From Patescibacteria group bacterium (GTDB lineage: Bacteria > Patescibacteriota > UBA1384 > GWA2-35-9 > JBASTP01), in NCBI GenBank assembly GCA_049274945.1, contig JBASTP010000006.1:96529-160528 (forward strand): a DNA stretch of 64,000 bases, given 5' to 3'. Under the pieces are notes generated by a model that was not told the origin of the DNA, did not search any database, and saw nothing but the letters and a program-made list of their open reading frames with translations. Position numbers and translations under genes: made by a program. Positions 11,796 through 44,237 of this stretch are shown one piece after another (the stretch's first letter is position 1; every line of letters begins with the position of its first letter).

Positions 11796-11806
11796 GAATA
11801 TCTATG

Positions 11807-15238: not shown

Positions 15239-15288
15239 CCAGGTCGGAGCTCGACGGGCTCTTTAAGCGGGTCAAGCCGGTCAAAACC

Positions 15289-17920: not shown

Positions 17921-19441
17921 ATGCCCGACATTAGCAGGCAAATTGCGGCGATCCGCCACGAGCAGGAAGAAGGCAAAACCGGCGAGCTCGCCGCGGCCCA
18001 AGGTCTGCCCTACATCGACCTCATCAGCTATCCGCTTACTCCGGAAACGTTACGGATTGTCCCTAAAGCCGATGCTCTGTCCCATCGGGTAGTGAGTTTT
18101 TTGAAGGTGGGCAAAAAGGTTAACGTTGCCACCGATCAACTGGCCCAGAGTTCGATTAAGGATTACCTCAAGGGGCTCGCCGATTCCACCAAACTTTCCT
18201 TTGCCATCCACCTTGCATCCCCCACCTCGCTTGATCGCACGATTGGCCTCTACGATGTTTTTGAAGCCGAAGACGAAAAAAAGATCCTTACTAAAAGTAA
18301 AGCGACGACCGATTTTGCCCAGATTATTAAAACCATTGACGATGTAGCCAAGGAGTTGCCCAAGGTTTCAACCACCGATTTGCTGGAGCTCCTCCTCACC
18401 GCCGCCGTTAAACTTGAGGCATCTGATATCCACCTCGAGCCGGAGCAAGGCGCTTGCCGGTTGCGACTGCGCTTGGATGGGGTGATGGAGGATATTGGTC
18501 GGCTTACGCTCGAACAACACCGGGCGCTCAACTCGCGGATCAAAAATCTCAGCCAGCTCAAACTCGATGTCCGCGACAAACCCCAGGATGGCCGATTCTC
18601 AACCAGGGTGATGGCACTCGATGTCGACGTTCGGGTTGCCACCTTGCCCTCGAGCTACGGCGAGGATATTGTGATGCGGCTTTTGATTCCCGCTCGCCAA
18701 CTCACCACGCTGCAGGCACTCGGTTTCTCAAAAGAGGTTTTGGAATTGGTGACTGACGCGATCGCCAAACCGCACGGCATGATTTTGAACACCGGCCCCA
18801 CCGGTTCTGGGAAAACTACCACGCTCTACGCCATTATAAGCCAGCTCAACAAACCGGGCCGCAAGATTATTACGATCGAGGATCCGATCGAGTACCGGCT
18901 CGCCGGAATTGACCAAAGTCAAGTGGAAGTGGAAAAGGGTTTTACGTTTGCCTCGGCGCTCCGATCGGCGCTCCGGCAAGACCCCGATATTATTATGGTG
19001 GGGGAGATCCGCGACAGCGAAACCGCCAAGATTGCCCTCAATGCGGCGCTGACCGGCCACCTGGTGCTGACAACCTTGCACACTAACAATGCCGCTGGCG
19101 CGATCCCGCGGCTGCTTGAAATGGGGATCGAACCATTTCTGCTCGCTGGCTCGATCAACCTAATTATTGGCCAGCGGCTGGTGCGCCGGCTCTGCCCCCA
19201 CTGCAAAGGCGCCAAATGCCTGCGCTGCCGCAAGCTCGGCTACCACGGTAGAATTGCCGTGGCCGAGGCGCTCAAGCCTCAGGCGGCGTTTAACGAACTG
19301 ATCGGCCGCAAGGCCACGATCGCAGAGTTTGAAGCCAAGGCCAAGGAATTTGGCATGACCACCATGCTTGAAGATGGGCGTGCCAAGGCCGCCCAAGGCT
19401 TGACGACTAGAGAGGAAGTGGAGCGGGTGGCGCAAGAGTGA
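17921..19441 (+). CDS. pilB: GspE/PilB-family secretion ATPase (type IV pilus / T2SS assembly ATPase)
   Basis: N-terminal GspE_N-like domain. Walker A GPTGSGKTTTL, Asp box, Walker B IIMVGEIRD and His box LVLTTLHTNNA. C-terminal tetracysteine CPHCKG...CLRC. Confidence 0.8.
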   Translation: MPDISRQIAAIRHEQEEGKTGELAAAQGLPYIDLISYPLTPETLRIVPKADALSHRVVSFLKVGKKVNVATDQLAQSSIKDYLKGLADSTKLSFAIHLASPTSLDRTIGLYDVFEAEDEKKILTKSKATTDFAQIIKTIDDVAKELPKVSTTDLLELLLTAAVKLEASDIHLEPEQGACRLRLRLDGVMEDIGRLTLEQHRALNSRIKNLSQLKLDVRDKPQDGRFSTRVMALDVDVRVATLPSSYGEDIVMRLLIPARQLTTLQALGFSKEVLELVTDAIAKPHGMILNTGPTGSGKTTTLYAIISQLNKPGRKIITIEDPIEYRLAGIDQSQVEVEKGFTFASALRSALRQDPDIIMVGEIRDSETAKIALNAALTGHLVLTTLHTNNAAGAIPRLLEMGIEPFLLAGSINLIIGQRLVRRLCPHCKGAKCLRCRKLGYHGRIAVAEALKPQAAFNELIGRKATIAEFEAKAKEFGMTTMLEDGRAKAAQGLTTREEVERVAQE

Positions 19442-26382: not shown

Positions 26383-27596
26383 GGGAATGTTAGGTAGTAT
26401 GCGTTGGGGTAGCGGCCGCCGAACCAACGTTCATCGTCAATCAAATGAACCGGTGAATTTTTTTCTCGATAGGCTTGGGGCAGTTTGATCCGTGCACGGC
26501 CGTCCTTTGAACCAGGGTCGTTGACATAGGCCTCGCGGCCGTCCTCGGAGAAACCAACAATCGTCAGGAAGTGACTGCCCTTATTGGAGAAGTTCGTGCC
26601 GATTACCACCGGCGTTTTGGTGCGATCTACGATATCCCGGATTGTACGCCAGTCTTGATCAGACGGCCCCATCTTGCCAGAGCGGCTGCCGCCCAGCACA
26701 ATTTTTTCCACTTTGGCGTTGGGCAGACCTGCCTGGCTGGCGGCAAAACGGAGATAGCCCCCGGTATCTTTCGGGCAACTCCTCGGTGGATCAGTTCGAC
26801 CTGCTATAATTTTTTCTTCAAGCTCGCGGGGGTAGCTTTTCTTCTCAGGTGGTCCAGAACTTTTGTCGTATGCATGGTAGAGCACTGCCATCATCGCTGC
26901 GTAGTAGTTGCAAGTAGTCGAGTTGACTGGTTGGAGCCGCCAGGGCACCTTGAGGCGCTTTGAACCGCCAGGCAAGAACAGTTCGGCAGTAAGAAACTCA
27001 AAGCGCAAACCGAGGGCGTGGAGTTGCTGGAGTAAATTGTCTTGGCTACCAAGGTCGCTTGTCCCGCGAATTTTTTTGGCGAGTACCTCCATCTCCCGTA
27101 ATAGGTTGATCGCTTCGGTCCGCTTATCCTCAGCAATGTTAGCTCTGCGTAGACCCTCAATTGCTGTGTAAACTCGCGCATCGAGTTGACGCGACTCGAT
27201 CAACTCTCGTTGAAGGGTCGGGATCAGTCCCGCCGCTGACTGGACTCGCAGCAGGTTTTCCCGATCAACGCTATTTTCGCCGTTGAACGGTTCCGGCTCG
27301 TGGGTGCCCTGGGCTCTTAATAACCTTGAAGGTTGCCGATAGTACACAAAAAACGCCGCTCCGGCGATGAGCACCACCACGATGATCATTATGACTGCGG
27401 CAATCGGTCCGAGCGCCAATAGAGCCGCAAACGCAAACTGGATCCCCGCCTGGACGACCGGGATGACCATCTTTAGTTTATTGAGCGTACCGGCTATCGT
27501 ACGGAGTTGGTTAAGCTTGTCCTCAAATTCTCGCCGGGTCTGGCGGTAGCGCGTCGGCTCCTCCGAATCATCACTGATTGTTGGTTCATCGGCCAT
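26379..27596 (-). CDS. membrane-anchored papain-fold Cys peptidase (CHAP/C39-like), putative cell-wall hydrolase
   Basis: AAGGGGGTG RBS. N-terminal TM segment, coiled-coil region, then a C-terminal domain with candidate catalytic Cys (NSTTCNYYAAMMAV) and His (KGSHFLTIVGFSEDG) followed by Asp/Asn (AYVNDPGS). Confidence 0.45.
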   Translation of the reverse strand: MADEPTISDDSEEPTRYRQTRREFEDKLNQLRTIAGTLNKLKMVIPVVQAGIQFAFAALLALGPIAAVIMIIVVVLIAGAAFFVYYRQPSRLLRAQGTHEPEPFNGENSVDRENLLRVQSAAGLIPTLQRELIESRQLDARVYTAIEGLRRANIAEDKRTEAINLLREMEVLAKKIRGTSDLGSQDNLLQQLHALGLRFEFLTAELFLPGGSKRLKVPWRLQPVNSTTCNYYAAMMAVLYHAYDKSSGPPEKKSYPRELEEKIIAGRTDPPRSCPKDTGGYLRFAASQAGLPNAKVEKIVLGGSRSGKMGPSDQDWRTIRDIVDRTKTPVVIGTNFSNKGSHFLTIVGFSEDGREAYVNDPGSKDGRARIKLPQAYREKNSPVHLIDDERWFGGRYPNAYYLTFP

Positions 27597-27605
27597 TGCA
27601 CCCCC

Positions 27606-28826
27606 TTAGAGTTCTAACCACCATAGTTTGTCTTGAGCAATAAAGACTACATTTTTACCAGTTGCATCCATTCTAAATTGGTGTGCTCCTTCCGGCAGTT
27701 CGTTCGCCAACTTCAGGGCGAGAAAATTGTTGGTGTTAAGCTCATAGCTGCCAAATTGTTTACCCTGAGCGGAGTCGAAGGGTTCGAAGATTCCCGTGAT
27801 GCGATCCCCTGCGATTGCCAGGTCGCTAGCTTGGCCCTTAAATCCAAGCTTCAGCGCCTCCCCGAGTTTGATTGTGCCAAGTTCCTTGCTTGTACCGGTC
27901 GTTACTATTTGAAATGGTACTACCGTAAGCTCGCCATCGCGGGTTATAAGGAGCCGTTCGTTAGCCAGGAAAACACTGCTTGAGACGCCATCGGCAACTT
28001 TGCTGATTGTCTTGGTAGTGATGACGGCAAGGTAGGCGGCTTTGCCATCATTGACAAGGACGGTGTTACCGTCGGGTGAAATATTGAGCCGGGCACGATC
28101 GATCTCGACATCTTTGAGATCGATCAGCCGTTCAATTCGCTCCCGAGATCGCTCCGATCGCACCAGTGACCGTTCGGATGAAGGACTGTAGAGGTGGTAG
28201 ATCAGTTTGCCTTCCGGGTCGAACGCAAATGCGCGAGAATCACTATCGTATAGTTTGAACTCTTGGTGGAGCAGGTCGTACCGGGCAAAGTTATAAAGTC
28301 CTGAGCTGCCGGTACGATCGGCGAGCGTTGCTACGGAATAGTCAGGCGCAAACGCTACTTCGGTCAGCTCGCCCAGCACCGAGGGGGTAATCGGAATATT
28401 CTCAACTTTGGCACCTTCAGGGCCTTCCACAAACCGCAGCCGAAAGAGCGCTCTAGCTTGCCGGTTAAAGTAAAAAAATTGATCTCCCTCGGGATTGCTT
28501 GAGAGCAAATCAACCTGCTCTGCTACCACGAGTTTTGCTGAAGCCAGCTTCTTGAGCGAAGTCCGAATCCGTTTAATTTGCAGCGCCCGGATTTTTATGG
28601 TCTCCCGGTGCGGAACAAATCCTGGAGCGGTAACGGTAAGCTGGTAGCTGCCCGGCGTGAGCCGGCTCGTAAAGCCCACTTCTTTGCCATCGATTAGTAC
28701 CGTAGCGTTTTTTGGTTCAGGCAGCACAATAATGCTGCCAAGCCGATACGACACGGCAAACGCGATGGCGAGCGCGAGGAGGGGAATGGCGATAATCGCT
28801 ATCCAGAACCATATACGTGCCGTCAT
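27606..28826 (-). CDS. PEGA-domain membrane protein with beta-rich periplasmic domain
   Basis: N-terminal TM anchor. PEGA-like segment PKNATVLIDGKEVGFTSRLTPGSYQLTVTAPGFVPH. The remaining ~300 aa is beta-rich. ATGA overlap with the virB4 stop. Confidence 0.45.
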   Translation of the reverse strand: MTARIWFWIAIIAIPLLALAIAFAVSYRLGSIIVLPEPKNATVLIDGKEVGFTSRLTPGSYQLTVTAPGFVPHRETIKIRALQIKRIRTSLKKLASAKLVVAEQVDLLSSNPEGDQFFYFNRQARALFRLRFVEGPEGAKVENIPITPSVLGELTEVAFAPDYSVATLADRTGSSGLYNFARYDLLHQEFKLYDSDSRAFAFDPEGKLIYHLYSPSSERSLVRSERSRERIERLIDLKDVEIDRARLNISPDGNTVLVNDGKAAYLAVITTKTISKVADGVSSSVFLANERLLITRDGELTVVPFQIVTTGTSKELGTIKLGEALKLGFKGQASDLAIAGDRITGIFEPFDSAQGKQFGSYELNTNNFLALKLANELPEGAHQFRMDATGKNVVFIAQDKLWWLEL

Positions 28827-30613
28827 GGTTGGTTAGGTTCAGATTTCGGTTGCTTGGTTGCCTGCTCGATCGCTAACAGTTGCCGGGGGTCGGTGGTAAT
28901 GAGTTGGTCCTCGATGTACGAAGCAACCACTTTAATTGCGACATGGTTTTTGCCCGCAAAGAATAAGCCTTCACCGACATCGGCTTCAAGGAGCAGAAAC
29001 TTTTCACCCTCAGTGAGATTAAACACCTCGGCAATTTTGTCGATCGCCGCGGTTGATTGCTTAAGCAGCACCTGCATCGCCGCGTTATTCAAGACCGCGC
29101 GGCCGTACTTGGAATCGAGGAAATCCTCGGCATCTTGGGTGATTACGGTCATACCGAGGTAGTACTTGCGGGCGCGTTTAACCAGGGCGTGAACGAATTT
29201 GGCCGAGTCTTCGTGGGCCATCATTACCCAGGCCTCGTCCATAATCACGAGGCGCCGCCGCAGCTCGCGGCGGATCTTGCCCCAAATATAGGAGAGGATC
29301 AAATACATGCCGATCGGCCGAAGTTGCTCTTCCAAGTCGCGAATCGAAAACACCACCAAGCCGGCAGTCAATTCAAAGTTAGTTGGTTTGGTAAACAGGC
29401 CCGCGAACGTGCCCTCGGTGTATTTTTGCAACCGTTTTACCAGGCTCTCGGCGCCGGTCATATTGGCAAGCACCGAGATGAGGTCGGGTAAAAGCGGCGG
29501 CGGATTTTTGTGGCTGGCCGGATCGGCGGTAATGTCTTTGAGGGCATACACTTCGTAGAGCGCCTTATCGAGGATTCCCGATTCGTCGGGGGTTAAGCCG
29601 CCGACCATCAAACTTATCAAACCTTCAACCATGGCAATGGTTGAACGGAGTACGTTCTCACCGGTCTCACCTTCGGTGAGCGGCGGCAGGTCGAACGGAT
29701 TGATCCTTTGGGTCGAGTTGAGCGAAAGGTTCATAAACGAGCCGCCGACTGCCTCGGCAAGCGCCCGGTACTCGTTTTCCGGGTCAATGATAATCACGTC
29801 CGTGCCCAGCATCAGGTAGCGGAGCGCCTCGAGCTTGACCATGTAACTTTTGCCGGCGCCCGAGCGAGCAAACACAATCGAGTTAGCGTTTTCTAAATCG
29901 AACCGGTCAAAGAGAATCAAGCTGTTATTATGCCGGTTGATGCCGTACAGGATGCCTCGGTTCGAAGAGAGGGTTGCCGAGGTAAAGGGGAACGTGGTAG
30001 ACAGTGATGCCGTGTCGAGGTTGCGCAGGACCTGGAGCTCATCGGCGCCGAGCGGCAGCGAGGAATTGAAGCCCTGTTCCATTTGCAAGAACGCCTGCTT
30101 GGTGTAAATCAGCATGCCGCCAAACGCACTCTCAAGTTGTTTGTTCAGTGAATCGAGCTCGCCCATGCTCGTGGCATACACCGTGATGTAGAGTGAGAAG
30201 TGGAAGATCCGCGTCTCACCTTTTTGGAGCACCTCGCGCAGGGCATCAATGTCGCCGACCGCGGTTTCAAGCTCCGGGTCGCGCACCAAACCTTTTTCGT
30301 GCTGGATCGCTACTGAACTTTCAAGTTGGGTCTGGCGTCGGCGGAGCTGGCCCATCACCTCGCGAGTTTCAACCGGGTAGATAAACATCGAAATGTCCAT
30401 GGGGATGTCGAAGTTAATCACCGGCGAGAGCCAGTTGGTGTTGAGATAGCGCGGGTAGGTGAACACGAAAAATGTCTTCACGTAGAGGTTGTTAAGTTCA
30501 AGGTAGTTAGGCGTGATCGCAAAGGCCGCCGGCGAAATAATATCAAGGAGGGTGGTTTCGCCCGCGTGGAGCTCTTTTTCTAATGTAGTCTCGTGGGTGG
30601 TTTGTTTGGCCAT
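28823..30613 (-). CDS. virB4: VirB4/TrbE/PrgJ-family T4SS ATPase
   Basis: Walker A FARSGAGKSYMV, DPENEY motif, Walker B RRLVIMDEAWVMM, and TVITQDAEDF (sensor/arginine-finger region). 596 aa, consistent with the Gram-positive-type VirB4. Confidence 0.7.
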   Translation of the reverse strand: MAKQTTHETTLEKELHAGETTLLDIISPAAFAITPNYLELNNLYVKTFFVFTYPRYLNTNWLSPVINFDIPMDISMFIYPVETREVMGQLRRRQTQLESSVAIQHEKGLVRDPELETAVGDIDALREVLQKGETRIFHFSLYITVYATSMGELDSLNKQLESAFGGMLIYTKQAFLQMEQGFNSSLPLGADELQVLRNLDTASLSTTFPFTSATLSSNRGILYGINRHNNSLILFDRFDLENANSIVFARSGAGKSYMVKLEALRYLMLGTDVIIIDPENEYRALAEAVGGSFMNLSLNSTQRINPFDLPPLTEGETGENVLRSTIAMVEGLISLMVGGLTPDESGILDKALYEVYALKDITADPASHKNPPPLLPDLISVLANMTGAESLVKRLQKYTEGTFAGLFTKPTNFELTAGLVVFSIRDLEEQLRPIGMYLILSYIWGKIRRELRRRLVIMDEAWVMMAHEDSAKFVHALVKRARKYYLGMTVITQDAEDFLDSKYGRAVLNNAAMQVLLKQSTAAIDKIAEVFNLTEGEKFLLLEADVGEGLFFAGKNHVAIKVVASYIEDQLITTDPRQLLAIEQATKQPKSEPNQP

Positions 30614-30617
30614 GGCG

Positions 30618-31346
30618 TTACTCCGGGTTAATCACGTTTAACTGGCTTGCTTTGTTTTCCACTTTCTTTTCTTCTTCGATTGGCTGTTTCTCAATGATCG
30701 GCGCCTCGATTACGCCCAGTTCGGTAAGCTGTTCCTCTTGTGACTCCTCGTGGTTGTACAGGCGATAAAACAGTTCAACAACTCCCTGGGTGTCCAAAAT
30801 GGTGGTAGTCATGCCCAAGGGGGCAAGCCCGCCAATCACCACCTGCGTGCGTTCATCGAGCGTTTTCTGGAACTTGCCGTAGTCGGCCGGTGAAAACTTA
30901 ATCTGCGATTTTCTGGTGCCAAAAAGGGAGCTGAAAAATCCCTGCTTGGTGGGACCCGGCTCAATTCCTACCACAACGTAGAATCGCTTCTCCATAATGT
31001 TCGCCAGCTGGGTAAGCCGTTTAATAAACTCGATATACTCGTTGGCATGGAGCCGTAGCAGCTCCGACTCAATTTTGTTGACGAACTTGGTGAGCGATTC
31101 CATGTAGGGGTGCAAGTCGAGCCGCCGGGAGTGCACGACAATTTGGATGGGGAAGTTGAGCGAGTTCAAAAAGCTCTGGAACTGGCCAACCATCGCCTGC
31201 TGCTCTTGCTCGGATTTGAGCGAGAAGTTCACTGGTGTTACCTCTACCACTTTGCGCAGTAAACCAGTCTTCGTGACTACAATACCATCGGCAACATTGG
31301 CAATGTTGACGTATCCCTGGGTTGATTGGACGACTTTTTTGGCCAT
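30618..31346 (-). CDS. hypothetical T4SS-associated protein (resembles the N-terminal domain of Gram-positive VirB4/PrgJ-like proteins)
   Basis: The ATG at 31346 (MAKKVVQ) is preferred over the track TTG at 31367. The pattern DGIVVTKTGLLRKVVEVTPVNFSLKSEQEQQAMVGQFQSFLNSLNFPIQIVV recalls the membrane-proximal N-domain of PrgJ/TraE-type ATPases. No NTP-binding motifs. Confidence 0.3.
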   Translation of the reverse strand: MAKKVVQSTQGYVNIANVADGIVVTKTGLLRKVVEVTPVNFSLKSEQEQQAMVGQFQSFLNSLNFPIQIVVHSRRLDLHPYMESLTKFVNKIESELLRLHANEYIEFIKRLTQLANIMEKRFYVVVGIEPGPTKQGFFSSLFGTRKSQIKFSPADYGKFQKTLDERTQVVIGGLAPLGMTTTILDTQGVVELFYRLYNHEESQEEQLTELGVIEAPIIEKQPIEEEKKVENKASQLNVINPE

Positions 31347-31353
31347 GGTTATT

Positions 31354-31719
31354 TCAATGGATATCAAGCCGCTGGGCTACCCCGCGGATTATTCCTAAGT
31401 CAAACTTTTTCGGCACTGGCCGTACTACCGGTTGTTTGGTACCCGGTGCATCGGCAATGGTTACTACCGCGGTTGGCCCTTTGTGCCACACCCAGGTTTT
31501 CGGCGTCAGGTTGTAGTGGATGAGCGAGCCGAGAAACTTGGAAAATGGCTGGTCTTGGACTTTCACGAACGCGAATGCCAGCGCTAGTACCACCACCGGT
31601 ATGCCAAACGCGATAAAGAGGTACAGCGAGATTTTGAGCAGGGCATAGGCAAACATGCCGCCCGTAAGCAGGTACAAAAATTGGAACAGGGTGAGCGGCC
31701 CAAAGATTTTATCCTGCAT
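31354..31719 (-). CDS. VirB3/PrgI-like small two-TM protein (short form; 5' end uncertain)
   Basis: The track ORF extends to 31920. That would overlap the metK start codon and promoter head-on, so the ATG at 31719 (MQDKIFGPLTLFQFLYLLTGGMFAYALL...) is preferred. Two adjacent TM helices plus a short hydrophilic tail, immediately upstream of virB4. Confidence 0.35.
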   Translation of the reverse strand: MQDKIFGPLTLFQFLYLLTGGMFAYALLKISLYLFIAFGIPVVVLALAFAFVKVQDQPFSKFLGSLIHYNLTPKTWVWHKGPTAVVTIADAPGTKQPVVRPVPKKFDLGIIRGVAQRLDIH

Positions 31720-31833
31720 ATCGATATTTTGCGGAACCTTATACTGCGCCACGGCGAAAAAACCTCCTTCTCCCTCCTTGGGGAGAACTACCTGCCCCGC
31801 GTAGCCCAGAGCTTGGCGAAGGGCGTAGCGGGG

Positions 31834-31863
31834 TTGACTATTGAACCTAATTGTTTGTATTAT
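31834..31863 (+). promoter_or_regulatory. putative sigma70-type promoter of metK (possibly leaderless)
   Basis: TTGACT (31834-31839), an 18-nt spacer, then TATTAT (31858-31863). The metK ATG at 31871 lies only 7 nt downstream of the -10 element, and there is no SD. Confidence 0.3.
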
Positions 31864-31870
31864 ATCACCT

Positions 31871-33025
31871 ATGCATCGACTTTTCACTTCAGAGTCAGTC
31901 ACCGAAGGCCATCCGGACAAGATTTGCGACCAGATCAGTGATGCCGTTTACGACGAAATGCTTCGTCAGGACAAAAAAACTCATGCCGGCATTGAATGTT
32001 TTGTCACTACCGGGTTGGTAGTGGTTGGCGGGGAAGCCCGCACCAAGGGTTATGTGGACATTCATGAAATCGTGCGCCGCACCCTGAAGAGAATCGGCTA
32101 CGATAAACCCGAGTATGGTTTTTGCTACACCGACGTCGGGGTGATTTCCACGCTCCACGAGCAGTCGCCGGATATCGCCCAAGGGGTGGACAAAAACCGC
32201 GGAGAATTCAAAGAACAGGGGGCGGGTGATCAAGGCTTGATGTTTGGTTTTGCCTGTGATGAGACAAAAGAACTCATGCCGCTACCCATTACCCTGGCAC
32301 ACGGTTTGACTCGCCGATTGGCCCAAGTCCGTAAAAATGGCAAGTTGCCGTATCTGCGACCAGATGGCAAATCACAAGTGAGCGTTGAATATTTGGATAA
32401 CAAACCGAATCGGGTTACTGCAGTAGTGATCGCGGCCCATCATTCAGAAGGCGTGACGACCGAGAAATTGCGCGGTGATATTAAAAAATTTGTCATCAAA
32501 CCGGTATTAGGAAAATGGCTTTCGCCTCAAACCAAGATATTTATTAACGCTACTGGCAGATTTGTGCTCGGCGGCCCGCCGGCGGATGCTGGCTTGACTG
32601 GCCGGAAAATTATTGTTGACACCTACGGCGGCTATGCGCCGCACGGCGGCGGTTGTTTTTCAGGGAAATGCGTAACCAAGGTGGACCGAAGCGCGGCGTA
32701 CGCGGCCAGATACATTGCCAAAAATATCGTGGCAGCCGGGTTGGCAAAAAAATGCCTGGTGCAATTAGCCTACGCCATTGGCGTGGCTAAGCCAGTATCC
32801 GTGATGATTGATACCTACGGGACCGGTGCAGCGGCCGATGGGGATTTGGAAAAATCCGTGGAAAAGATTTTTCCGCTGAAGCCCGCTGATATTATCCGCG
32901 TGCTCGATCTGGAGCGACCTATATATGAACAAACCGCGGCGTACGGCCACTTCGGCCGCCCCGATTTAGATCTCCCGTGGGAAAAAACGAATAAGGTTAA
33001 TGAGCTCAGGCGAGCGATTCGTTAA
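31871..33025 (+). CDS. metK: S-adenosylmethionine synthetase
   Basis: [26 protein letters not shown]. Glycine-rich [17 protein letters not shown]-terminal GGGCFSGK. Confidence 0.9.
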
Positions 33026-33220: not shown

Positions 33221-35887
33221 TCAAACCATCGTCCCGGTCACGGTGAACGACATGCCCGGTTTGAGTTCTTGGCGCAAAATCTTTTCGGCAACGAGGTTTT
33301 CCACTTTGTCGGTAAGCGCGCGTTCCAGCGCCCGCGCGCCGTACACCGGGTCAAAACCCAGCTGCACCAACTTTTGCTTGGCCGCTTGGTCAAGCGTAAT
33401 TGTGATTTGTTCTTTAGCGAGTCCTTCGTTCAATCGGGAAACCATAATATCCAGCACTTTTGCCATTTCGGCATGACTCAGCGGCCGGTAAACCACCGCC
33501 GCATCAAAGCGGTTCAAGAACTCCGGGCGGAACGTGCCTTGCCGCTGGATGTCATCAATCAGCTGTTTGGCAAATGTTTCCACTTGCTCACCGGCGTTGA
33601 TCCGCTCGCGGATTTGCTCTGAGCCGGCGTTAGAGGTGGCAATAATAATCGTATTGGTAAAATCAACGGTTTTGCCGGAGTCATCGGTCAGCCGGCCTTC
33701 GTCGAGCAGCTGCAAAAATAGGTTAAGGATATTCTCGTTGGCCTTGTCGATTTCATCAAAAAGAATCAGCGAAAAGGGTTTTTCGGCCACCGCGCGGGTG
33801 AGCAGCCCGCCACCCGGGTGCGACGGCCCGCCGATCAGCCGCTCGGCGCCAAAGGGCGTGTCATATTCCGACATGTCAAACCGAACGATTTCCTTTTCGC
33901 CGCCAAAGTAGGCGTTGGCCAGGGCTTTGGCGGTAGCGGTTTTACCCACGCCGGTTGGCCCCAAAAATAGGAAGGCGCCGATTGGTCGCGGCCGGGTTTT
34001 CACGCCGGTTCTGGCGCGGCGCAGCGCATCGGCAATTTGGCTAACCGCATAGTCTTGGTTGATCAAACTTTTGTGTAGCACGGTCTCAAGATTTAGCAGC
34101 AGTTCCCGTTCATCTCCGCCTACCGGCCCCACTGCCACATGGGTTTTACTCTCAACGATTTTGTCGAGATCTGCCGGCCGGAGGATCTTCTCGGCTGATC
34201 GTTCAGCGGTGTAAACCGCTGCTTCATCAAGCAGATCAATCGCCTTTTCCGGTAGTTTTTTCTCCGGCAGGAAGCGGTGGGAAAGCGCGAGCACTTCTTT
34301 CAAACTGGCGTAGCTTATTACAATCCGATAGCGGGCTTCGAACGCAGCGGCCACTTCCTCAAGAATATTCATCATCTCGTCGTCGCTCGGCTGTGTAACC
34401 TCGATTTTTTCAAAACTCGCCGCAATATCCGGGTGGCGGCTCAACACTTTGTGCCAGCCGTTTGGCGTGGTGGTGGCAATCAGCTTGAGGGCAGGGGAGT
34501 CGAGGTAGGGCTGAAGAATCGAGCCGGCATCAACTCGACCAATGGAAAGCTCCTCGCCAAAGAGCAGCCGATCAAATTCATCAATGAACAAAATTACATT
34601 TCCCGCCCGCACCGTTTCGTTGAAGATTTTTACCATTACCTGCTCAAGGGCGCCTACTGAACTAGCCCGCCCGAGCAGCCGGTTAGTATCGAGTTCAATA
34701 ATTCGTTTGTAAACGAGGGTCGAGAACGAGCTGCTTGCGAAGATTTTTTCCGTGATCCCCTCCACCACGGTGCGCTTGCCGGTGCCCGGCTCGCCCACCA
34801 GTACGGCGTTGTGGTGGCTGCGGCGCGCGAGGATGCGCTCAAGCCTCTCAATTGAGTTGCGATGAGCCACAAAGTGGTGGCTCGGGGCGCGGCCTTCGAG
34901 CCGGCTCGTCCAATCAATCGAAAACGCATCGAGCGTGGGGGTCCAGCCCGCTGCCCAATCGCGGCCCACCCCACCGGTTGCCCTCAATTTTTTAGGGTCA
35001 AAGAGCGCCGAAGGTTCATTCATTCGCCCCCATAACTCCGCCTGCCAGCGGCAGACTGCCTCGACATCTTGGAGCGTGAGCTTTTTTTCGGGCAGTTTAT
35101 TAGTTAGATCTTTTGTGTTCGCAATAAGTGTAAAGACCAAATCAGCTACCTCGACTCGCTCTCGGTGGTGGTTCAGAGCGGTTTGAGCTGATTTGATAAT
35201 AAAGGCGCGTTCGTCAAGTGCATTGGGATCCGCAGCGGTTACCTCATTTACCCCAAAATCCAAATGCTGAAATATGAATCGCGCTTGCTCATTTTTCAAA
35301 AGATTACCTACCAACTCGTTAAGATCTTTTGACTCCTTAACGATCCGCCGCGCAGCCAAGGTAAAATAAGGTCCGAATTTGAAGTCAGTTTGTTTGATAG
35401 CGCGGTCGAGCGGTTCGGGCTTCGGCGGGTTCGCCAGTAAGTCGTGGCGGTACCACCACAGCAGACCGCCTATGGTAGCTGCCACGGCCGCTACCAAACC
35501 CACCCCCCAGGTGCTTGCCCCAATAGTCATAAAGAAAAATCCAGCCACAAAAGCCACCGGTGCGAGTACCGGGAGTATCCAACTTGCGAGCACTATAAGC
35601 CCAAGGGCTAGCGCCACCGCAACCGTTACGATTAATCCCACTATCACGGTGGCTGCCCTCACCACAAAGCCGAAGCCGCGCGAGGCTAAATTGAGCGCAA
35701 CGGCTTGCAGCAGGAGCGAGATTTCTTGGCGCACCGGCGCCACCACATCGCGTTTCCAGGGTGCAAACAAGGTTTTTAGAAGCAGCTCAATCGAAAACAG
35801 GTCGTAGGTAATGAATAACAAACTCGCCGCCACATTTCTGAGTGTCTTAAATGCAACGCGGTAGTACCAGTGGAAAATGTTTTTCAT
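33221..35887 (-). CDS. membrane-anchored double-AAA+ Clp/Hsp100-like ATPase
   Basis: ~150-aa N-terminal region with 3-4 TM helices, then D1 Walker A LVGEPGTGKRTVV and D2 Walker A FLFLGPTGVGKTATAKALA, a sensor-2 region and a ClpB_D2-small-like C-terminus. No clear ClpP-docking IGF/LGF loop. Confidence 0.6.
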   Translation of the reverse strand: MKNIFHWYYRVAFKTLRNVAASLLFITYDLFSIELLLKTLFAPWKRDVVAPVRQEISLLLQAVALNLASRGFGFVVRAATVIVGLIVTVAVALALGLIVLASWILPVLAPVAFVAGFFFMTIGASTWGVGLVAAVAATIGGLLWWYRHDLLANPPKPEPLDRAIKQTDFKFGPYFTLAARRIVKESKDLNELVGNLLKNEQARFIFQHLDFGVNEVTAADPNALDERAFIIKSAQTALNHHRERVEVADLVFTLIANTKDLTNKLPEKKLTLQDVEAVCRWQAELWGRMNEPSALFDPKKLRATGGVGRDWAAGWTPTLDAFSIDWTSRLEGRAPSHHFVAHRNSIERLERILARRSHHNAVLVGEPGTGKRTVVEGITEKIFASSSFSTLVYKRIIELDTNRLLGRASSVGALEQVMVKIFNETVRAGNVILFIDEFDRLLFGEELSIGRVDAGSILQPYLDSPALKLIATTTPNGWHKVLSRHPDIAASFEKIEVTQPSDDEMMNILEEVAAAFEARYRIVISYASLKEVLALSHRFLPEKKLPEKAIDLLDEAAVYTAERSAEKILRPADLDKIVESKTHVAVGPVGGDERELLLNLETVLHKSLINQDYAVSQIADALRRARTGVKTRPRPIGAFLFLGPTGVGKTATAKALANAYFGGEKEIVRFDMSEYDTPFGAERLIGGPSHPGGGLLTRAVAEKPFSLILFDEIDKANENILNLFLQLLDEGRLTDDSGKTVDFTNTIIIATSNAGSEQIRERINAGEQVETFAKQLIDDIQRQGTFRPEFLNRFDAAVVYRPLSHAEMAKVLDIMVSRLNEGLAKEQITITLDQAAKQKLVQLGFDPVYGARALERALTDKVENLVAEKILRQELKPGMSFTVTGTMV

Positions 35888-35903
35888 ACCCTCCTTCTTT
35901 CGG

Positions 35904-36614
35904 CTAAATCTCCTGGGTTTCTCCAGGACTAAAAATAAACACTTTTGTTTTCGTAGCTGCTTCTACTTTTTGTTTGAACTCGTTGGGATTTGCGGCGACC
36001 TCGATCGCCGGCGTGTTGTAGTGCATCGGAATCACTACTTTTGGCGCCATGGTTTTAACCGCCGCCACTGCTTCATCGAGCGTCATGGTATAGGTGCCGC
36101 CGATTGGCACCATGGCAATATCCAGGTCGTTGAGCTCGGCCATTTCGGGAATGTGGTCGCTGTCGCCGGTGTGATAGATTTTTTTACCCTCTGCCTCAAG
36201 CACAAACCCCACGCCAAAATCTTTGGGGTGGTAGGGGGTATTGGGCGCCCGGAATTTGTTGGTATTGTATGCCGGTACCGCCCGAATCGTTACGCTCCCA
36301 ATTTTTTGCGATCCGCCAACTGCGAGTCCTATACCGCCCTGAACTTTCAGAGCATTCTCCTGTGAGGTAATAATGTTAGTAGTACCTTTCCGCAGCTGAC
36401 CAATTTTACCGCTGTCGGAGTGATCGAGGTGCGAATGGCTGATGCAGATAATATCAGCCTGCACGTTGCTAATATCTCCAGCATAGGGATCAAGGGCGAT
36501 AATCGTACCGTTGCCTAATGTAATCAGCCAGCTGGCATGCCCCAGCCACGTGAGTTGCATATGTTCATTATAGTTGAAAATTTGATGGGTGGCACGTGAG
36601 CCAGACCCCGTCAA
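35904..36614 (-). CDS. metallo-beta-lactamase-fold hydrolase
   Basis: HSHLDHSD (HxHxDH) zinc-binding motif. 236 aa. Confidence 0.7.
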   Translation of the reverse strand: MTGSGSRATHQIFNYNEHMQLTWLGHASWLITLGNGTIIALDPYAGDISNVQADIICISHSHLDHSDSGKIGQLRKGTTNIITSQENALKVQGGIGLAVGGSQKIGSVTIRAVPAYNTNKFRAPNTPYHPKDFGVGFVLEAEGKKIYHTGDSDHIPEMAELNDLDIAMVPIGGTYTMTLDEAVAAVKTMAPKVVIPMHYNTPAIEVAANPNEFKQKVEAATKTKVFIFSPGETQEI

Positions 36615-37375: not shown

Positions 37376-37519
37376 TTATTTTAGGAGATCTACGGTTGCT
37401 CTCCCATCGCTGTGTTTAAAGAAAATATGGGATCCCCGCTGCCGAATTTTCTGAAAGCCTAACCTTTCTAATATTCTAATAATTTGGCGTGCTTTAAGAG
37501 AACCAAGGCGCTTAGCCAT
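37376..37519 (-). CDS. hicA: HicA-family toxin, short form (47 aa), not in the ORF track
   Basis: Hand translation gives MAKRLGSLKARQIIRILERLGFQKIRQRGSHIFFKHSDGRATVDLLK*. It carries the HicA dsRBD-like core with the GSH motif. The start lies 2 nt after the hicB stop. It is shorter than typical HicA (~60 aa) and may be truncated. Confidence 0.45.
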   Translation of the reverse strand: MAKRLGSLKARQIIRILERLGFQKIRQRGSHIFFKHSDGRATVDLLK

Positions 37520-37772
37520 TGTTCAGTGAAACAACTTCCATACCAACAAACGAGGGTTCGTAGGAAAACTGTGAAATTTTCTCTTGGTACTCGGGGTCAT
37601 CGCTCTCAACATCAAGACATAGTTTGATTGCTTCTTTGATTCGTTTATTAAGTTCAGCCAAAGTTTTTGCTTGAGTGTAACAACCCGGTAACGATGGAAC
37701 CGTTGCAACAAAAAATCCGTCTTCGTCTCGTTCAATCAAGACTTTAAATTGGCGTGGTTGTAGTCTCGGCAT
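37512..37772 (-). CDS. hicB: HicB-family antitoxin
   Basis: 86 aa. FKVLIERDEDGFFVATVPSLPGCYTQAKTLAELNKRIKEAIKLCLD matches the HicB/UPF0150 RNase-H-like fold pattern. Confidence 0.5.
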   Translation of the reverse strand: MPRLQPRQFKVLIERDEDGFFVATVPSLPGCYTQAKTLAELNKRIKEAIKLCLDVESDDPEYQEKISQFSYEPSFVGMEVVSLNNG

Positions 37773-37831
37773 AGTGCGATGATTATATCATTGTTTCCAA
37801 TTTCCGCAATAATCAAGTTACCCACCGATAC

Positions 37832-38221
37832 TTATTCGATTCTTTTACTGTGCTTTTTGAGCCACTGGGCGATTTTGTCTTCGGGGAGCGAGTTATTTTC
37901 AATTTCTAGGGCGAGTCCATATAAGTGATTTTTTGATTGGATTAATTGGTAGCCGTTTTCTTCTAGAAACATACCTATTGATGCGATTGCAGTGCGTTTA
38001 TTGCCATCAACAAACGGGTGATTTTTAAGGAGCGAATGTCCTAACACGGCTGCCTTCATAAAAAGATCGGGGTAGGCTTCGAAGTCTCCAAAACCAGCTC
38101 GCGGTCGCGCAACAGCAGAATCCACGAGTCCGTAATCTCGGACACCCTGCGAACCGCCATACCTAATAACGAGCTCCTCGTGGATCTCGAGTACCGTTTC
38201 CGTGGCGAGATAACGGGTCAT
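37832..38221 (-). CDS. doc: Doc (death-on-curing) toxin, Fic-fold
   Basis: The Doc-specific motif HPFVDGNKRTA is present. 129 aa. Confidence 0.8.
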   Translation of the reverse strand: MTRYLATETVLEIHEELVIRYGGSQGVRDYGLVDSAVARPRAGFGDFEAYPDLFMKAAVLGHSLLKNHPFVDGNKRTAIASIGMFLEENGYQLIQSKNHLYGLALEIENNSLPEDKIAQWLKKHSKRIE

Positions 38222-38442
38222 TAGTTCTTGGCTAATTTTTTGAGGTCAGCGTCATTCCGATCCATGAATTTTTTCAAACGCCGTTTGAAGGCGGGAGTTG
38301 GCAACACGGTATTTGATACAGAGATTACAACTGATGGCTTACCGTGTTTTAACACTTGGTATTGTTCGCCCGAATAGGTAACCTTGTCGCTGATCTCGCT
38401 CCAACGTTTGCGGACCTCTGTTGAAGAAATTGTTTTAGTCAT
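38221..38442 (-). CDS. phd: Phd/YefM-type antitoxin partner of Doc
   Basis: 73-aa ORF overlapping the doc start by 1 nt. N-terminal pattern ISSTEVRKRWSEISDKV...VLKHGKPSVVISV is typical of Phd/YefM. Confidence 0.55.
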   Translation of the reverse strand: MTKTISSTEVRKRWSEISDKVTYSGEQYQVLKHGKPSVVISVSNTVLPTPAFKRRLKKFMDRNDADLKKLAKN

Positions 38443-38584
38443 TATGTATTAATTATACAATATGTACAAAACTATGTCAAGGGCCACTTGTGGTCAGGGG
38501 ATTTCCTTGACTTATTGGCTTTTGTTTGGTTTAATAACTGGTTCGCACTATGTTCCTGCACAACCTAGTCCAAGGAGGACGTCC

Positions 38585-39366: not shown

Positions 39367-40554
39367 TTATGTTCTGCCCTGCGAGCGGCAGCGCGGGAGG
39401 TTGGCAAGATAGATGCCGCATTCCGCGCCGATGCAACCATGCTGTCCAGAAAATCCCGGGCAGCACTGAGGGAATCGCTTGGGCTCCAGGGCCAAGGTAA
39501 CCGCTACCCGCATAATTTTGAGGTAGTAGTCCTTGTCCCAGTCGGGTTTGGCCCCGATATTGCGGTCGTTGCCGCCGACCGTAATTTCAGCCCCCCGGGC
39601 GTGGAAGTACACTTCCTCGCATCCCGCAATCGTACCGGGCGCGAGGAGCTCGTCGTCGGAATAACGGTAGCCTCTCGGCCGGGCAATGTCACTGCGCAGA
39701 ATCCGCAGCACATCGTCCAGCATGCCGAGGGTATTCACGCCCTCAAGCCGCCGGTTGGGCCGTACCGCGATTTCGCCGTGGCTCGTGATCTGGCAAATAA
39801 TCGCGAGGCCCAACTTTTGTGCCAGGTCGCGCGCCCAGAGGCTATCGTGTTCAATGATGCAGCCGCGCTCGCCAGACTTGGCCACAATCGTTCCCGCCTC
39901 GATCGCTGCCTTGAGGCCCGGCTCCTGCATCTGCTGCGCCCAATAGAGCCAGTCATCGAAGAGCGGCCTGGCAAGGACGAGCGCTTCCTGCACTGCCTGT
40001 AGCCGGTATTCCGGGTTGCTCCGCCACAAGGGATTGTCGCGCAGCCGTTTGAACCGGCGGTTGATGGTGGCAAAAATATCGCCACCGCCGCGGGTGTCCC
40101 AGTGGGCAGCTTGATCAGCCACGGCTCGGACCACCGGATCGCTCTCGTATTTTCGGGTTACGATAGCGACGTTTTTGATCGCGCACTCGTCCGGGTAATC
40201 CTCGGGTGGGTGGTGGTCAAACGGCCGTTGGTCGGTGCGACCGGCGCAATCAAAGGCCACTGCCTGGCGGCTGTCGAGCAGCTTGCCGTATTTTTGCTCA
40301 AGCAACGCCCGATCCGGCTCGACGATGATCGGCGCCTCGGCCAGGCCGGGAAATACTTTGCCATCCGGGTCGCAGTGGAGTGCCATCAGGATGGCAAAGA
40401 TGCCATCGGCATCCGCGTCGATGATCACCGCTTGAAGTTTCTTCCATTGTTGGCCCTTCCAGTCAGAGACGCATAAACTTTCTGTTGTCAACGTTCTCAC
40501 CTCCTTGGGGTGTTGTTGTGTGGAACCGTGCCGGTTTAGCCGGTTTGGTGCCAA
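39367..40554 (-). CDS. hypothetical protein with DHH-phosphoesterase-like motifs
   Basis: VIIDADADGIFAILMAL (DxDxDG, RecJ/NrnA motif I-like), FDHHPPED (DHH), and TRGGGD (a GGGH-like motif). An alternative reading is a nucleoside-hydrolase-like DxDxxxDD motif. Family unresolved. Confidence 0.3.
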   Translation of the reverse strand: MAPNRLNRHGSTQQHPKEVRTLTTESLCVSDWKGQQWKKLQAVIIDADADGIFAILMALHCDPDGKVFPGLAEAPIIVEPDRALLEQKYGKLLDSRQAVAFDCAGRTDQRPFDHHPPEDYPDECAIKNVAIVTRKYESDPVVRAVADQAAHWDTRGGGDIFATINRRFKRLRDNPLWRSNPEYRLQAVQEALVLARPLFDDWLYWAQQMQEPGLKAAIEAGTIVAKSGERGCIIEHDSLWARDLAQKLGLAIICQITSHGEIAVRPNRRLEGVNTLGMLDDVLRILRSDIARPRGYRYSDDELLAPGTIAGCEEVYFHARGAEITVGGNDRNIGAKPDWDKDYYLKIMRVAVTLALEPKRFPQCCPGFSGQHGCIGAECGIYLANLPRCRSQGRT

Positions 40555-40663
40555 GAAAAGGCGGCCCCGACCTTCCTCCGAAAAGCTCGGATTGGGTCGG
40601 GACCGCGTCTCGCTAATTCAGTTGATCTTAATAAACTGTTCTAGCGAGGGTATGACTGGGTCT

Positions 40664-41881
40664 TTACAGCTCTACGTTGCCCGCCGCGGGGGCTGTACTC
40701 ACCTCGGCGGTTTTTGCCTTGATCAGCTCCTTTGCTGCATCAATCGTTGCTTGCGCTCGTGCTTGGTTCTTGAGAACCTTCACGAGCTCGTTGACGTTGG
40801 CCGCAGCCAGGTAGGCTGCGTTGAGGTAACCGGCCTTGTTGAGCCGGTCGGCAAATTCGCCGCGCCGCTGGCCATCCCGTTCGGGGAAGTGCTTTTTGGC
40901 GACTGCCGCGAGCACCTCCATAACCGAAATGTCGCTGCCGGGCTTGCTGGGTGTTGTCTTTCCGGAGCCCTTTCCTTTTCCGCCTCGCGTTGTGCGTTTG
41001 GCCTTGCGAGCCGCTTGCTCAACGATCTCGGCGAAAATGGTAGGCGTGAAAAATACCACCCGGTCGTCGCGTTTCTCCGGGCCGTATTTGGAAACCGAAT
41101 AGGCGTATGCCTTTCGGTAGGCCTGGATCAGGGAGTAGCGGCGCTCACTGGCATCGGTACTCATCAGCGATGCCTCGGCAGTGTTGATATCACCGCGAGC
41201 AATGAGCGCCCTGAGGACTTCAGCACTGCCTTCTTTGGTGGCGTTAAGCATCATGCTGTAAGCCCGTCTCACCTCCTGTGGTCTGGGCGGTTGGTTAGGA
41301 TCCGATTCGATGAATCCCAGGACCACAAACACGCCTCGTTCCTCGCCGTTGATCAGGATTGTCAAGGGATTGTCTTCGTCGGTCTCACCCTCGAGCAATG
41401 TGATCTGGCCTTCGTCAATCTGATTCGCGGAAACGAACCAAACGAGGTGGGCCGACGGCCGGTACCAGTACTTACCGTTAGTCGGTTCCATCTTACGGTT
41501 GACGTGGAGTAGCGGGCCGCCGTTGAAGTGGCACTTCTGGGCAAACCCAATAGTCTCATCACGCTCGGACGGTTTGATGTTGCCCTTCTCCACGAGTTCC
41601 TCGTGGAAGTAGCGCCCTGCGAGCGATCCGCCGTCGGTCAGAAACTCGGAGTCGATGTGGCAGCACCACACCGTTCCCCTCCGGTTTTTGTGCGCCCGGT
41701 AGCGTATGGGAGTGCCAATCGGCGGCACATCGCACGCTCTCGGAATGAGGGGTAAGCCATCCACCTTCTCAGTGGAGAAGCGACGGTAGGGGAATTCGAT
41801 GATTCCCGACCGCTGGCGCCTCGAACCGTCCTTGAAGACGGCGGTCCCTTCTAACTCAAATGTAATCTTCGGGCCGGCCAT
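40664..41881 (-). CDS. hypothetical protein (last gene of the Hsp70-like operon)
   Basis: 405 aa, basic, with a KGKGSGKTTPSKPGS linker. No recognisable catalytic motif. 1-nt gap to the upstream gene. Confidence 0.4.
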   Translation of the reverse strand: MAGPKITFELEGTAVFKDGSRRQRSGIIEFPYRRFSTEKVDGLPLIPRACDVPPIGTPIRYRAHKNRRGTVWCCHIDSEFLTDGGSLAGRYFHEELVEKGNIKPSERDETIGFAQKCHFNGGPLLHVNRKMEPTNGKYWYRPSAHLVWFVSANQIDEGQITLLEGETDEDNPLTILINGEERGVFVVLGFIESDPNQPPRPQEVRRAYSMMLNATKEGSAEVLRALIARGDINTAEASLMSTDASERRYSLIQAYRKAYAYSVSKYGPEKRDDRVVFFTPTIFAEIVEQAARKAKRTTRGGKGKGSGKTTPSKPGSDISVMEVLAAVAKKHFPERDGQRRGEFADRLNKAGYLNAAYLAAANVNELVKVLKNQARAQATIDAAKELIKAKTAEVSTAPAAGNVEL

Positions 41882-41882
41882 G

Positions 41883-42473
41883 TTAGGCTCCTTTCTTTGG
41901 TTTCAGGCGGCCTTGGTTGATCTCGCCCTGCGTGTTATTGACAACCTGGCGCTGCGCCAAGCCCTGCCACGTGTGGGCGAGTTCGGCGATCTTCGTCCGT
42001 TGCGGTTTACTCTTCACCTCGGTGAGCGAGCCATACCCCAGCGTTTCGAGGATCCAGGTAATTTCTTGCGCAGATTGTGTCGATGATGTGGAGTTGCCGC
42101 GCATAACTTCCTCCACATCAGTGATCCGTCGCTCAAGGTTATGTACCGTTGCCTGGAGCTGAGCGACTGTTGCCGAGGTGCCTCCGTCGAGATTGTTTTG
42201 GGTACCCAATCTTTCAGGAACACTACGCACAAACAATCTGATCATGGTTTCCGGGTTGCTCGTCAGGCCATCAGCGATGTCCTTACCGAGTTCTCCGTCA
42301 CGATCCAGCTCGCTGGCAAGCCACTCTGCCGCGGTCCGGTACTGCTCCCCGAGTCCAGTCACAAACCCTTGGACAAACCAGTCGTGGTTGCCAGGCGTAT
42401 GTTGCCAAGCTGCCAGTCGCTTGTTGCCGTTGGGGCCGATCTTGGTCAGGATCTCCCGGACCATGTGTTTCAT
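41883..42473 (-). CDS. hypothetical protein (third gene of the Hsp70-like operon)
   Basis: 196 aa. ATGA overlap with the stop of the Hsp70-like gene. Confidence 0.4.
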   Translation of the reverse strand: MKHMVREILTKIGPNGNKRLAAWQHTPGNHDWFVQGFVTGLGEQYRTAAEWLASELDRDGELGKDIADGLTSNPETMIRLFVRSVPERLGTQNNLDGGTSATVAQLQATVHNLERRITDVEEVMRGNSTSSTQSAQEITWILETLGYGSLTEVKSKPQRTKIAELAHTWQGLAQRQVVNNTQGEINQGRLKPKKGA

Positions 42474-44218: not shown

Positions 44219-44237
44219 CACTGTGATCACCTCTTTT

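Follow-up and report, generated by a model that had tools for sequence, protein, structure and literature searches.

A Clp/Hsp100-type ATPase of Patescibacteria with a membrane-type N-terminus, coupled by fusion or adjacency to a small conserved membrane module

Clp/Hsp100 proteins are textbook soluble threading machines. Canonical Hsp100s thread their substrates with aromatic pore-loop residues, and the M-domain of ClpB couples that protein to DnaK for disaggregation. Membrane-anchored hexameric ATPases include FtsH, Msp1 and the VirD4-type coupling proteins. Two further systems serve as analogies: the Torsins, which are Clp-D2-like, lack aromatic pore-loop residues and depend on LAP1/LULL1, and Pex1/Pex6, in which the first ring (D1) is inactive, the second (D2) is active, and recruitment is by the membrane anchor Pex15/Pex26. 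The subject of this analysis is a Clp-like gene encoding an 888-amino-acid protein in a stretch of 64,000 nucleotides from a Patescibacteria group bacterium (GenBank assembly GCA_049274945.1, contig JBASTP010000006.1, positions 96,529 to 160,528; hereafter the window), originally predicted to specify a membrane-anchored double-AAA+ unfoldase.

The protein derives from the Clp/Hsp100 ATPases and has an N-terminus that is hydrophobic and of membrane type. A small, conserved membrane module always accompanies its ATPase, whether fused to it or encoded next to it, and the hallmarks of ClpB (the M-domain), of ClpA and ClpC (the ClpP loop) and of threading (the pore-loop aromatics) are all missing. 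Judged from its sequence, it is probably a membrane-embedded, ClpP-independent, D2-driven remodeller that works with the module, and not a classical threading unfoldase. The original prediction missed that the N-terminus is a conserved module, encoded in most species by a small gene of its own beside the ATPase. This branch of the class-I Clp/Hsp100 ATPases is large, centered on Patescibacteria and apparently undescribed. A limited literature search found no description of a membrane-anchored Clp/Hsp100 protein, of a Patescibacteria Clp-like protein of this kind or of the module, and term searches turned up no such protein in a survey of Patescibacteria type IV secretion systems (T4SS; PMC12102498), in the ClpI paper (PMC10149685) or in the main text of PMC10633639.

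The N-terminal module and its pairing with the ATPase

The open reading frame (ORF) comprises 888 codons, begins with ATG and contains no internal stops. Its product matches, without a single difference, an NCBI protein from a Patescibacteria metagenome-assembled genome. An AGGAGG lies close upstream of the ATG, and the N-termini of homologues align with that of the 888-aa protein. Three peptide strings, at residues 81-145 (a hydrophobic run), 365-373 (GEPGTGKRT) and 643-657 (GPTGVGKTATAKALA), are all found in the translation.

Residues 1-124 constitute a membrane module without existing annotation, characterized by the pattern FS...TLFAPWKRD...SRxxGxxxR and a W-x-x-P hairpin. A word-index homology search with the N-terminal 339 amino acids alone gave no match. 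An exhaustive HMMER search with residues 1-339 succeeded, returning 593 representatives at E<=1e-3, and many of the best matches are free-standing proteins of 120-135 amino acids that cover residues 3-120. No significant family was found in Pfam or NCBIfam for the module or for its free-standing counterparts. The conserved positions include W7 and a Y, an invariant F31-S32, TLFAPWKRD, N66, R70, G73 and R77, along with an uncharged stretch of about 45 residues bearing a W103...P106 turn; in the 888-aa protein, all of these motifs are found within residues 7-106. In 78 free-standing modules, the N-domain averages 9.7 K+R against 5.0 D+E, and the tail after the hairpin averages only 4 residues. 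Given this positive excess, the N-domain should be cytoplasmic by the positive-inside rule, with the hairpin in the membrane.

A locus scan combining the pattern [KQ]TLFAPWK, one genome per species and a 7-sequence module alignment yielded 76 loci, and these, together with other retrieved loci, provided 77 paired loci in which both parts could be located. The ATPase lies immediately 3' of the module, on the same strand, in all 77. Module and ATPase are separate ORFs in 55 (the module being about 125 aa, and the genes mostly abutting or overlapping) and a single ORF in the other 22; split-type ATPases bear an N-terminal hydrophobic helix pair of their own. The pairing also holds when approached from the ATPase side: a 124-aa motif-bearing ORF lies before the ATPase P0010 and overlaps it by 4 nt, a divergent 113-aa ORF stands before P0015, and P0023 is a short fused form. 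The Berkelbacteria contain both arrangements (fused at locus L002; split at L014, L026 and L030), so fusion or fission must have happened more than once. No other evidence for a joint function of module and ATPase is as strong as this Rosetta-stone pattern, which also excludes the assembly artefact raised as a concern with the original prediction: independently assembled relatives, at 40-88% identity, have the fused form too. At two split loci (L008, 10357-10839, and L021, 2993-3452) the module and ATPase genes are separated by a gap of about 460-480 nt, in which a further small ORF may lie.

Residues 78-146 form a 69-residue run without a single charged residue, within which 19-residue Kyte-Doolittle means peak at 3.0. 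On a Hessa-type insertion scale, the apparent insertion free energy (dG, kcal/mol) is -3.3 for residues 78-100, +1.4 for 104-122 and +1.6 for 127-145. Segment 19-37 is not membrane-like (dG +3.8) and includes D29 and E34. Three hydrophobic helices are therefore counted; of the three to four transmembrane (TM) helices originally proposed, the hydrophobic, membrane-type N-terminus stands and the fourth helix falls away. Kyte-Doolittle scans of about 90 canonical ClpB and ClpC controls mark no N-terminal segment and a single marginal one, located inside D2, and dG falls below 1.0 in 0 of 92. N-terminal hydrophobic segments occur in all of the closest relatives (about 28), with dG below 1.0 in 26 of 27. 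The third hydrophobic helix is present in the same subclade that has T4SS adjacency (see below). Simple scans yield unstable counts of between one and three TM helices, and for this reason no topology is claimed.

The tandem AAA+ rings

Pfam matches follow the class-I Clp/Hsp100 layout, with a D1 AAA domain (1e-18) and AAA_lid_9 (501-568, 9e-14) followed by a D2 AAA_2 domain (634-796, 6e-45) and ClpB_D2-small (803-882, 9e-21). The 888-aa, double-AAA+ architecture of the original prediction, and the AAA, AAA_2 and ClpB_D2-small matches expected from it, are thus borne out. The top PDB sequence matches are Thermus thermophilus ClpB (E 2e-118), ClpC and ClpA, with both ClpB and ClpC at E<=1e-110, and the AAA core is about 30-37% identical to ClpC and ClpA. 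None of the NCBIfam equivalog cut-offs for ClpB, ClpA and TssH is reached (TIGR03346, 461.7 against 1232.1; TIGR02639, 428 against 993; TIGR03345, 367 against 885, respectively). There is no M-domain: residues 393-520 of ClpB and 407-472 of ClpC have no counterpart, and ClpA aligns as one stretch. No Peptidase_M41 match was found by Pfam in the protein, which has two rings. A full-length AlphaFold2 (AF2) model, with a mean predicted local distance difference test score (pLDDT) of 87.6, has helices at 2-30, 33-38, 56-103, 105-121 and 125-152, followed by a helical domain at 177-330 and then by D1 and D2; its best Foldseek matches in the PDB are ClpC and ClpB.

The helical domain between the membrane-type N-terminus and D1 appears to be a divergent relative of Clp_N. 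An hhalign comparison of residues ~175-333 with the canonical Clp N-region gave a probability of 98.1% and an E-value of 1e-13, a score to which the conserved TPTLD linker contributes, and the NCBIfam ClpA alignment begins at residue 230. Residues 161-339 have no significant Pfam or NCBIfam family and no match to Pfam Clp_N (PF02861) at E<=1. PF02861 is carried by some TM-bearing relatives (P0014, P0016, P0017 and P0059).

The motif comparison rests on an alignment that combines the protein, named ClpC and ClpB references and 64 ATPases of the family drawn from species-representative genomes. D1 retains the Walker B IDE, and the arginine fingers, ERRF in the references, are replaced by AASF. 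D2 keeps its Walker B FDE and the arginine finger NRFD along with Walker A. The same division runs through the family. In D2, Walker A GPTGVGKT, Walker B DE and the arginine finger NR are each present in 64/64, and sensor-2 G[AG]R in 61/64; in D1, GK[ST] is found in 20/64, Walker B DE in 9/64 and the RR fingers in only a single member. The original description of two complete AAA+ modules is true of the folds only. D1 is structurally complete and, from its motifs, catalytically degenerate, and D2 alone keeps a conserved catalytic apparatus.

The pore loops, which the alignment placed at SSV in D1 and GGPSHPGGG in D2, contain an aromatic residue of any kind in 8 (D1) and 11 (D2) of the 64 family members. 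They rank among the most variable segments of the family, both in sequence and in length, with mean column entropies of 2.9 and 2.7 bits, compared to 0.14-0.62 bits for the D2 catalytic motifs. The ClpP-docking insertion is absent by alignment, where the ClpC references show VGF or LGF, in agreement with the original prediction that no IGF/LGF tripeptide is present; an [ILV]G[FL] tripeptide occurs in the corresponding region of 1/64 family members.

These features place the protein at varying distances from the described systems. It resembles ClpC and ClpA in the tandem arrangement of D1 (AAA and AAA_lid_9) and D2 (AAA_2 and D2-small) and in an N-domain that appears related to Clp_N, and it shares with ClpA the absence of a long M-domain. 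Unlike either, it has an N-terminal membrane module and hydrophobic helices, and it is without the IGL/VGF ClpP-docking loop, the pore-loop tyrosines, the D1 arginine fingers and the D1 Walker A Ser/Thr. ClpB and Hsp104 offer the best overall sequence and PDB matches, a highly similar D2 and D2-small, and ClpP independence; they differ in possessing a coiled-coil M-domain of about 125 residues and a pore-loop Tyr in both rings, whereas the protein described here has a degenerate D1 and is predicted to be membrane-embedded. ClpV/TssH is likewise a ClpP-independent Hsp100, serving a secretion apparatus, and TssH is matched here below the NCBIfam cut-off, but ClpV is a soluble protein whose pore loops are still functional. 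Among the annotated neighbors of the Clp-like gene, no type VI secretion genes were found.

FtsH, Msp1 and VirD4-type proteins offer a likeness in that their N-terminal TM helices keep a hexameric ATPase ring on the cytoplasmic side of the membrane. However, FtsH combines one AAA ring with an M41 protease, the one ring of Msp1 has aromatic pore loops, VirD4 falls outside the AAA+ Clp type, and none of the three has a Clp_N-like domain, a D1 and D2 pair or the conserved module. The remaining likenesses are analogies only. Torsins with LAP1/LULL1 likewise combine a Clp-D2-like AAA+ protein at a membrane, pore loops without aromatic residues and a membrane-protein partner; they are nevertheless single-ring, lumenal and eukaryotic, they lack an arginine finger of their own (which D2 retains here), and the sequence kinship is that of the AAA+ fold only. 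Pex1/Pex6 with Pex15/Pex26 similarly joins a double ring, with D1 inactive and D2 active, to a small membrane protein that acts as anchor, but these eukaryotic proteins belong to the NSF/Cdc48 clade and not to Clp/Hsp100, keep the D2 pore-loop aromatics and thread their substrates.

Genomic neighborhood and distribution

The features of the Clp-like gene and the principal genes around it are collected in Table 1.

Table 1. Coordinates in the window of the Clp-like gene, the segments of its product and selected neighboring genes
Feature	Position	Strand	Remarks
Whole ORF, 888 aa	33221..35887	-	membrane module, extra hydrophobic helix, Clp_N-like domain, D1, D2, D2-small
Shine-Dalgarno-like GAAGGAGG	35890..35897	-	2 nt between its end and ATG
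Residues 1-77, helical net-positive N-domain of module	35657..35887	-	motifs W7-Y, F31-S32, T39-LFAPWKRD-47, N66, R70, G73, R77
Residues 78-124, hydrophobic hairpin of module	35516..35656	-	helices 78-102 and 105-121, joined by conserved W103/P106 turn
Residues 125-146, third Gly/Ala-rich hydrophobic helix	35450..35515	-	specific to the window's subclade
Residues ~175-335, divergent Clp_N-like helical domain and TPTLD-type linker to D1	34883..35365	-	
Residues ~340-570, D1 AAA+ module with AAA_lid_9	34178..34870	-	degenerate
D1 Walker A GEPGTGKRT	34769-34795	-	GKRT in place of GK[ST]
D1 pore loop	34640-34669	-	KYR replaced by SSV (RASSVG)
Residues ~595-800, D2 AAA_2 module	33488..34105	-	catalytic motifs intact, no ClpP-docking insertion
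D2 Walker A GPTGVGKT	33935-33961	-	intact
D2 pore loop	33806-33832	-	GYVG deleted, GGPSHPGGG remains
Residues 803-882, ClpB_D2-small with sensor-2 GAR	33242..33481	-	
MBL-fold hydrolase gene	35904..36614	-	stop 16 nt upstream of Clp-like gene
Candidate promoter-like site, 10/12 matches	36567..36595	-	just upstream of probable MBL start M18
T4SS-like operon	20713-31920	-	downstream of Clp-like gene, same strand; metK between, opposite strand
PrgI (PrgI/VirB3-like)	31354-31920	-	
249-aa ORF	30618-31367	-	no Pfam match; tblastn to TraC-like gene of L001, 1e-72
VirB4-like ATPase	28823-30613	-	
PEGA-domain and Peptidase_C39-like proteins	within 20713-31920	-	
1904-aa ORF	20713-26427	-	no Pfam match
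dnaA	10111-11451	-	

When neighbors are clustered, the module is the only gene family shared by more than 10 of the 76 scan loci. The recurrent neighbors look like housekeeping genes (thymidylate kinase, FtsE, an FtsQ-like protein, a release factor, seryl-tRNA synthetase and similar), as named by eye from their sequences. The adjacent gene for a metallo-beta-lactamase (MBL)-fold hydrolase is probably co-transcribed with the Clp-like gene, but neither it nor the M24 neighbor is kept beside the relatives in the locus scan. The TTG start listed for the MBL-fold gene is probably too far upstream, with the true start at the ATG (M18), because the Pfam match begins at residue 20 and both this ATG and the promoter-like site are nearby.

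The order Clp-like gene, PrgI, TraC-like gene, all on one strand, is shared by three relatives of about 40% identity (L001, L082 and L083); VirB4 comes next in L001, and the contigs of L082 and L083 end before that point. On the opposite side of the Clp-like gene, the genes vary among these T4SS-linked loci. The closest relative, L081 (88% identity), has no T4SS genes after its Clp-like gene, and the difference points to a recent rearrangement at the junction. There (2902-7799), three PEP-utilizers-domain genes and a His_Phos_1 gene come after the Clp-like gene instead. T4SS adjacency is thus found in 4 of the 5 loci of the window's subclade. PrgI, TraC-like or VirB4 genes were found within 10 kb of the gene pair in 0 of the 76 scan loci, and a family-wide link to the T4SS was rejected on that count; the location beside a T4SS operon noted in the original prediction holds for the window's own subclade and not across the family. 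No case could be made for a defense system either, as PADLOC returned only generic matches to the AAA_2 region (DolB, PDC-M37B and TRIP13).

Several other observations concern the wider window. The T4SS-like operon lies about 10 kb from dnaA, which fits the origin-proximal placement reported as frequent for Patescibacteria T4SS in PMC12102498. Within positions 10111-16000, dnaA is followed by a low-GC stretch (0.38-0.43, compared to ~0.54 elsewhere) that encodes a methyltransferase, a DUF6190 protein, a dihydrodipicolinate synthase (DHDPS)-like protein and an aminotransferase, and that could be an island beside the origin. It is followed by YidC (15879-16700) and a PilB/T2SSE ATPase (17921-19441). 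On the other side of the Clp-like gene is a toxin-antitoxin cluster (37512-38480, minus strand), in which HicB-like (37512-37772), Fic/Doc-like (37832-38221) and Phd-like (38221-38442) genes were named by inspection of their translations; beside it, at 38480-38452, is a 12/12 match to the sigma-70 consensus TTGACA-17-TATAAT. Positions 39367-44230 (minus strand) encode a divergent Hsp70-like protein (586 aa, 194 bits to PF00012) followed by three ORFs, two of which were scanned and gave no Pfam match. Upstream of the Clp-like gene of L001 (236-4852), a 515-aa HSP70 is likewise followed by ORFs of 186, 473 and 314 aa, which suggests that the Hsp70-like run is a conserved block of the window's subclade.

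As recorded in their database labels, 56 of the 76 scan loci belong to named CPR (candidate phyla radiation) lineages and 8 to an unclassified 'bacterium'. The named lineages are Saccharibacteria (25 loci), Berkelbacteria, Paceibacterota/Parcubacteria, Peri-/Peregrinibacteria, Nealsonbacteria, Zambryskibacteria, Gottesmanbacteria, Woesebacteria and Roizmanbacteria. The others include 10 third-party-annotation (TPA) metagenome-assembled genomes (MAGs) labeled 'Gammaproteobacteria/Pseudomonadales', all with the fused form, and single loci from Limnocylindria and Chlamydiae. For these non-CPR labels (L005, L035, L045, L050, L060, L069, L070, L078-L080, L053 and L071), either the record taxonomy may be wrong, several being co-assembly TPA MAGs, or the family may reach beyond Patescibacteria.

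A probable ortholog of the pair is present in Southlakia epibionticum. SEML1_0701 is a 127-aa hypothetical protein, structurally annotated as a helical hairpin, whose gene overlaps that of SEML1_0700, an 860-aa 'AAA family ATPase' with AAA at 276-381, AAA_lid_9 at 415-471, AAA_2 at 544-706, D2-small at 713-792 and no Clp_N (PMC10633639 and its supplementary tables). In successive transposon sequencing (Tn-seq) calls both genes are non-essential (NE), NE and growth defect (GD), and insertion reads fall over passages (PMC10633639); the pair shows only a late, mild and shared growth defect. Southlakia also has a ClpC with Clp_N and UVR domains (SEML1_0512, NE) and a ClpP (NE), and its FtsH is called GD, GD and essential (ES) and its DnaK GD, ES and ES (PMC10633639).

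Mechanism and competing explanations

The remodeller that is favored here would form a hexameric ring, which the module and the TM helices would hold against the cytoplasmic side of the membrane. The D2 ring would be the sole site of ATP hydrolysis and D1 a structural ring, and the energy would go into remodelling membrane-embedded or membrane-proximal partners instead of processive threading; the module would serve as an obligate anchor or adaptor, or as the direct target. Without a ClpP loop the protein should not feed ClpP, without an M-domain it should not be a DnaK-coupled disaggregase, and with variable pore loops that lack aromatics it is probably not a canonical threading machine. Several points weigh against this proposal. 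In the window's protein, D1 retains the Walker A lysine and the Walker B DE and may bind ATP or hydrolyze it slowly, and although the missing pore-loop aromatics argue against canonical threading, translocation by way of other residues is still conceivable. A physical interaction between module and ATPase is deduced from adjacency and fusion alone, and the orthology of SEML1_0700/0701 from size, order and Pfam coordinates, not from sequence. Three hydrophobic helices also clash with a cytoplasmic N-domain and a cytoplasmic ATPase unless one of them does not span the membrane, and the helix break at 103-105 is not the same in the two AF2 models.

The mechanism originally proposed, in which a canonical Hsp100 unfoldase or disaggregase is tethered to the membrane and threads membrane or secretion substrates, much as a protease-free FtsH or Msp1 would, would account for the membrane anchor, the Clp_N-like domain as a site for substrates or adaptors, the intact D2 motor and the hexamer-type folds, and the D1 entry face would point to the membrane as in FtsH. 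It is a possible reading, if a rather unlikely one, and fits the pore loops less well than does a remodeller: aromatics are absent from both rings here and scarce in the family, the loops are hypervariable, D1 has no arginine fingers, and there is no M-domain for coupling to DnaK. In S. epibionticum, moreover, an essential FtsH coexists with a putative orthologous pair that is dispensable. At the other extreme, the protein might be a scaffold or pseudo-ATPase, like the SMAX1/D53-type Clp relatives, or the ORF an artefact, either because two genes were wrongly joined in assembly or because the N-domain, though hydrophobic, is soluble. The degenerate D1, the lost pore loops and a weak SMAX1 match in the PDB are compatible with a scaffold, but such explanations are very improbable given that the D2 Walker A, Walker B and arginine finger are kept in all 64 of the aligned family members, that the fused form is found in many independent assemblies while the split form keeps both parts adjacent, and that the strongly hydrophobic segment 78-100, inside its charge-free run, is unlike anything seen in the canonical Clp controls.

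A third alternative is that the protein is a dedicated ATPase of the Patescibacteria T4SS, energizing or feeding it in place of a missing coupling protein. In the window, as in L001, L082 and L083, PrgI and the TraC-like gene come directly downstream of the Clp-like gene; the genes on its other side vary. No recognizable coupling protein is described for the Southlakia T4SS (PMC10633639). Nevertheless, such a role is improbable, a minority reading confined to the window's subclade. Beyond the absence of T4SS genes at the scan loci and after the Clp-like gene of the closest relative, an opposite-strand metK intervenes in the window, and the Southlakia T4SS genes are essential, whereas the putative pair is called NE, NE and GD and lies about 650 kb away. 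The linkage may also be merely positional, since T4SS genes are often origin-proximal (PMC12102498) and dnaA is in the window. A more speculative scheme, also doubtful though a little less so, would extend the remodeller into a 6:6 machine of modules and ATPases, in which 12-24 membrane helices form a conduit or extraction site and D2 powers or gates a translocase or extractase without aromatic pore loops, recruited in the window's lineage to the T4SS in place of the missing coupling protein.

Patescibacteria make up a large share of bacterial diversity, have tiny genomes and are thought to keep few dispensable genes. The family is widespread among them and differs from soluble Clp/Hsp100 proteins in that it is, on the evidence of its N-terminus, membrane-embedded, is paired or fused with a small membrane protein, would be run by D2, and lacks pore tyrosines, an M-domain and a ClpP loop. 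The presence of the probable orthologous pair SEML1_0700/0701 in the genetically tractable Southlakia epibionticum makes the proposal directly testable. If it holds, it would widen the known range of designs among Hsp100 machines, provide a prokaryotic parallel to Torsin/LAP1 or Pex1/6-Pex15, and offer a function-based approach to what is now a conserved hypothetical membrane protein.

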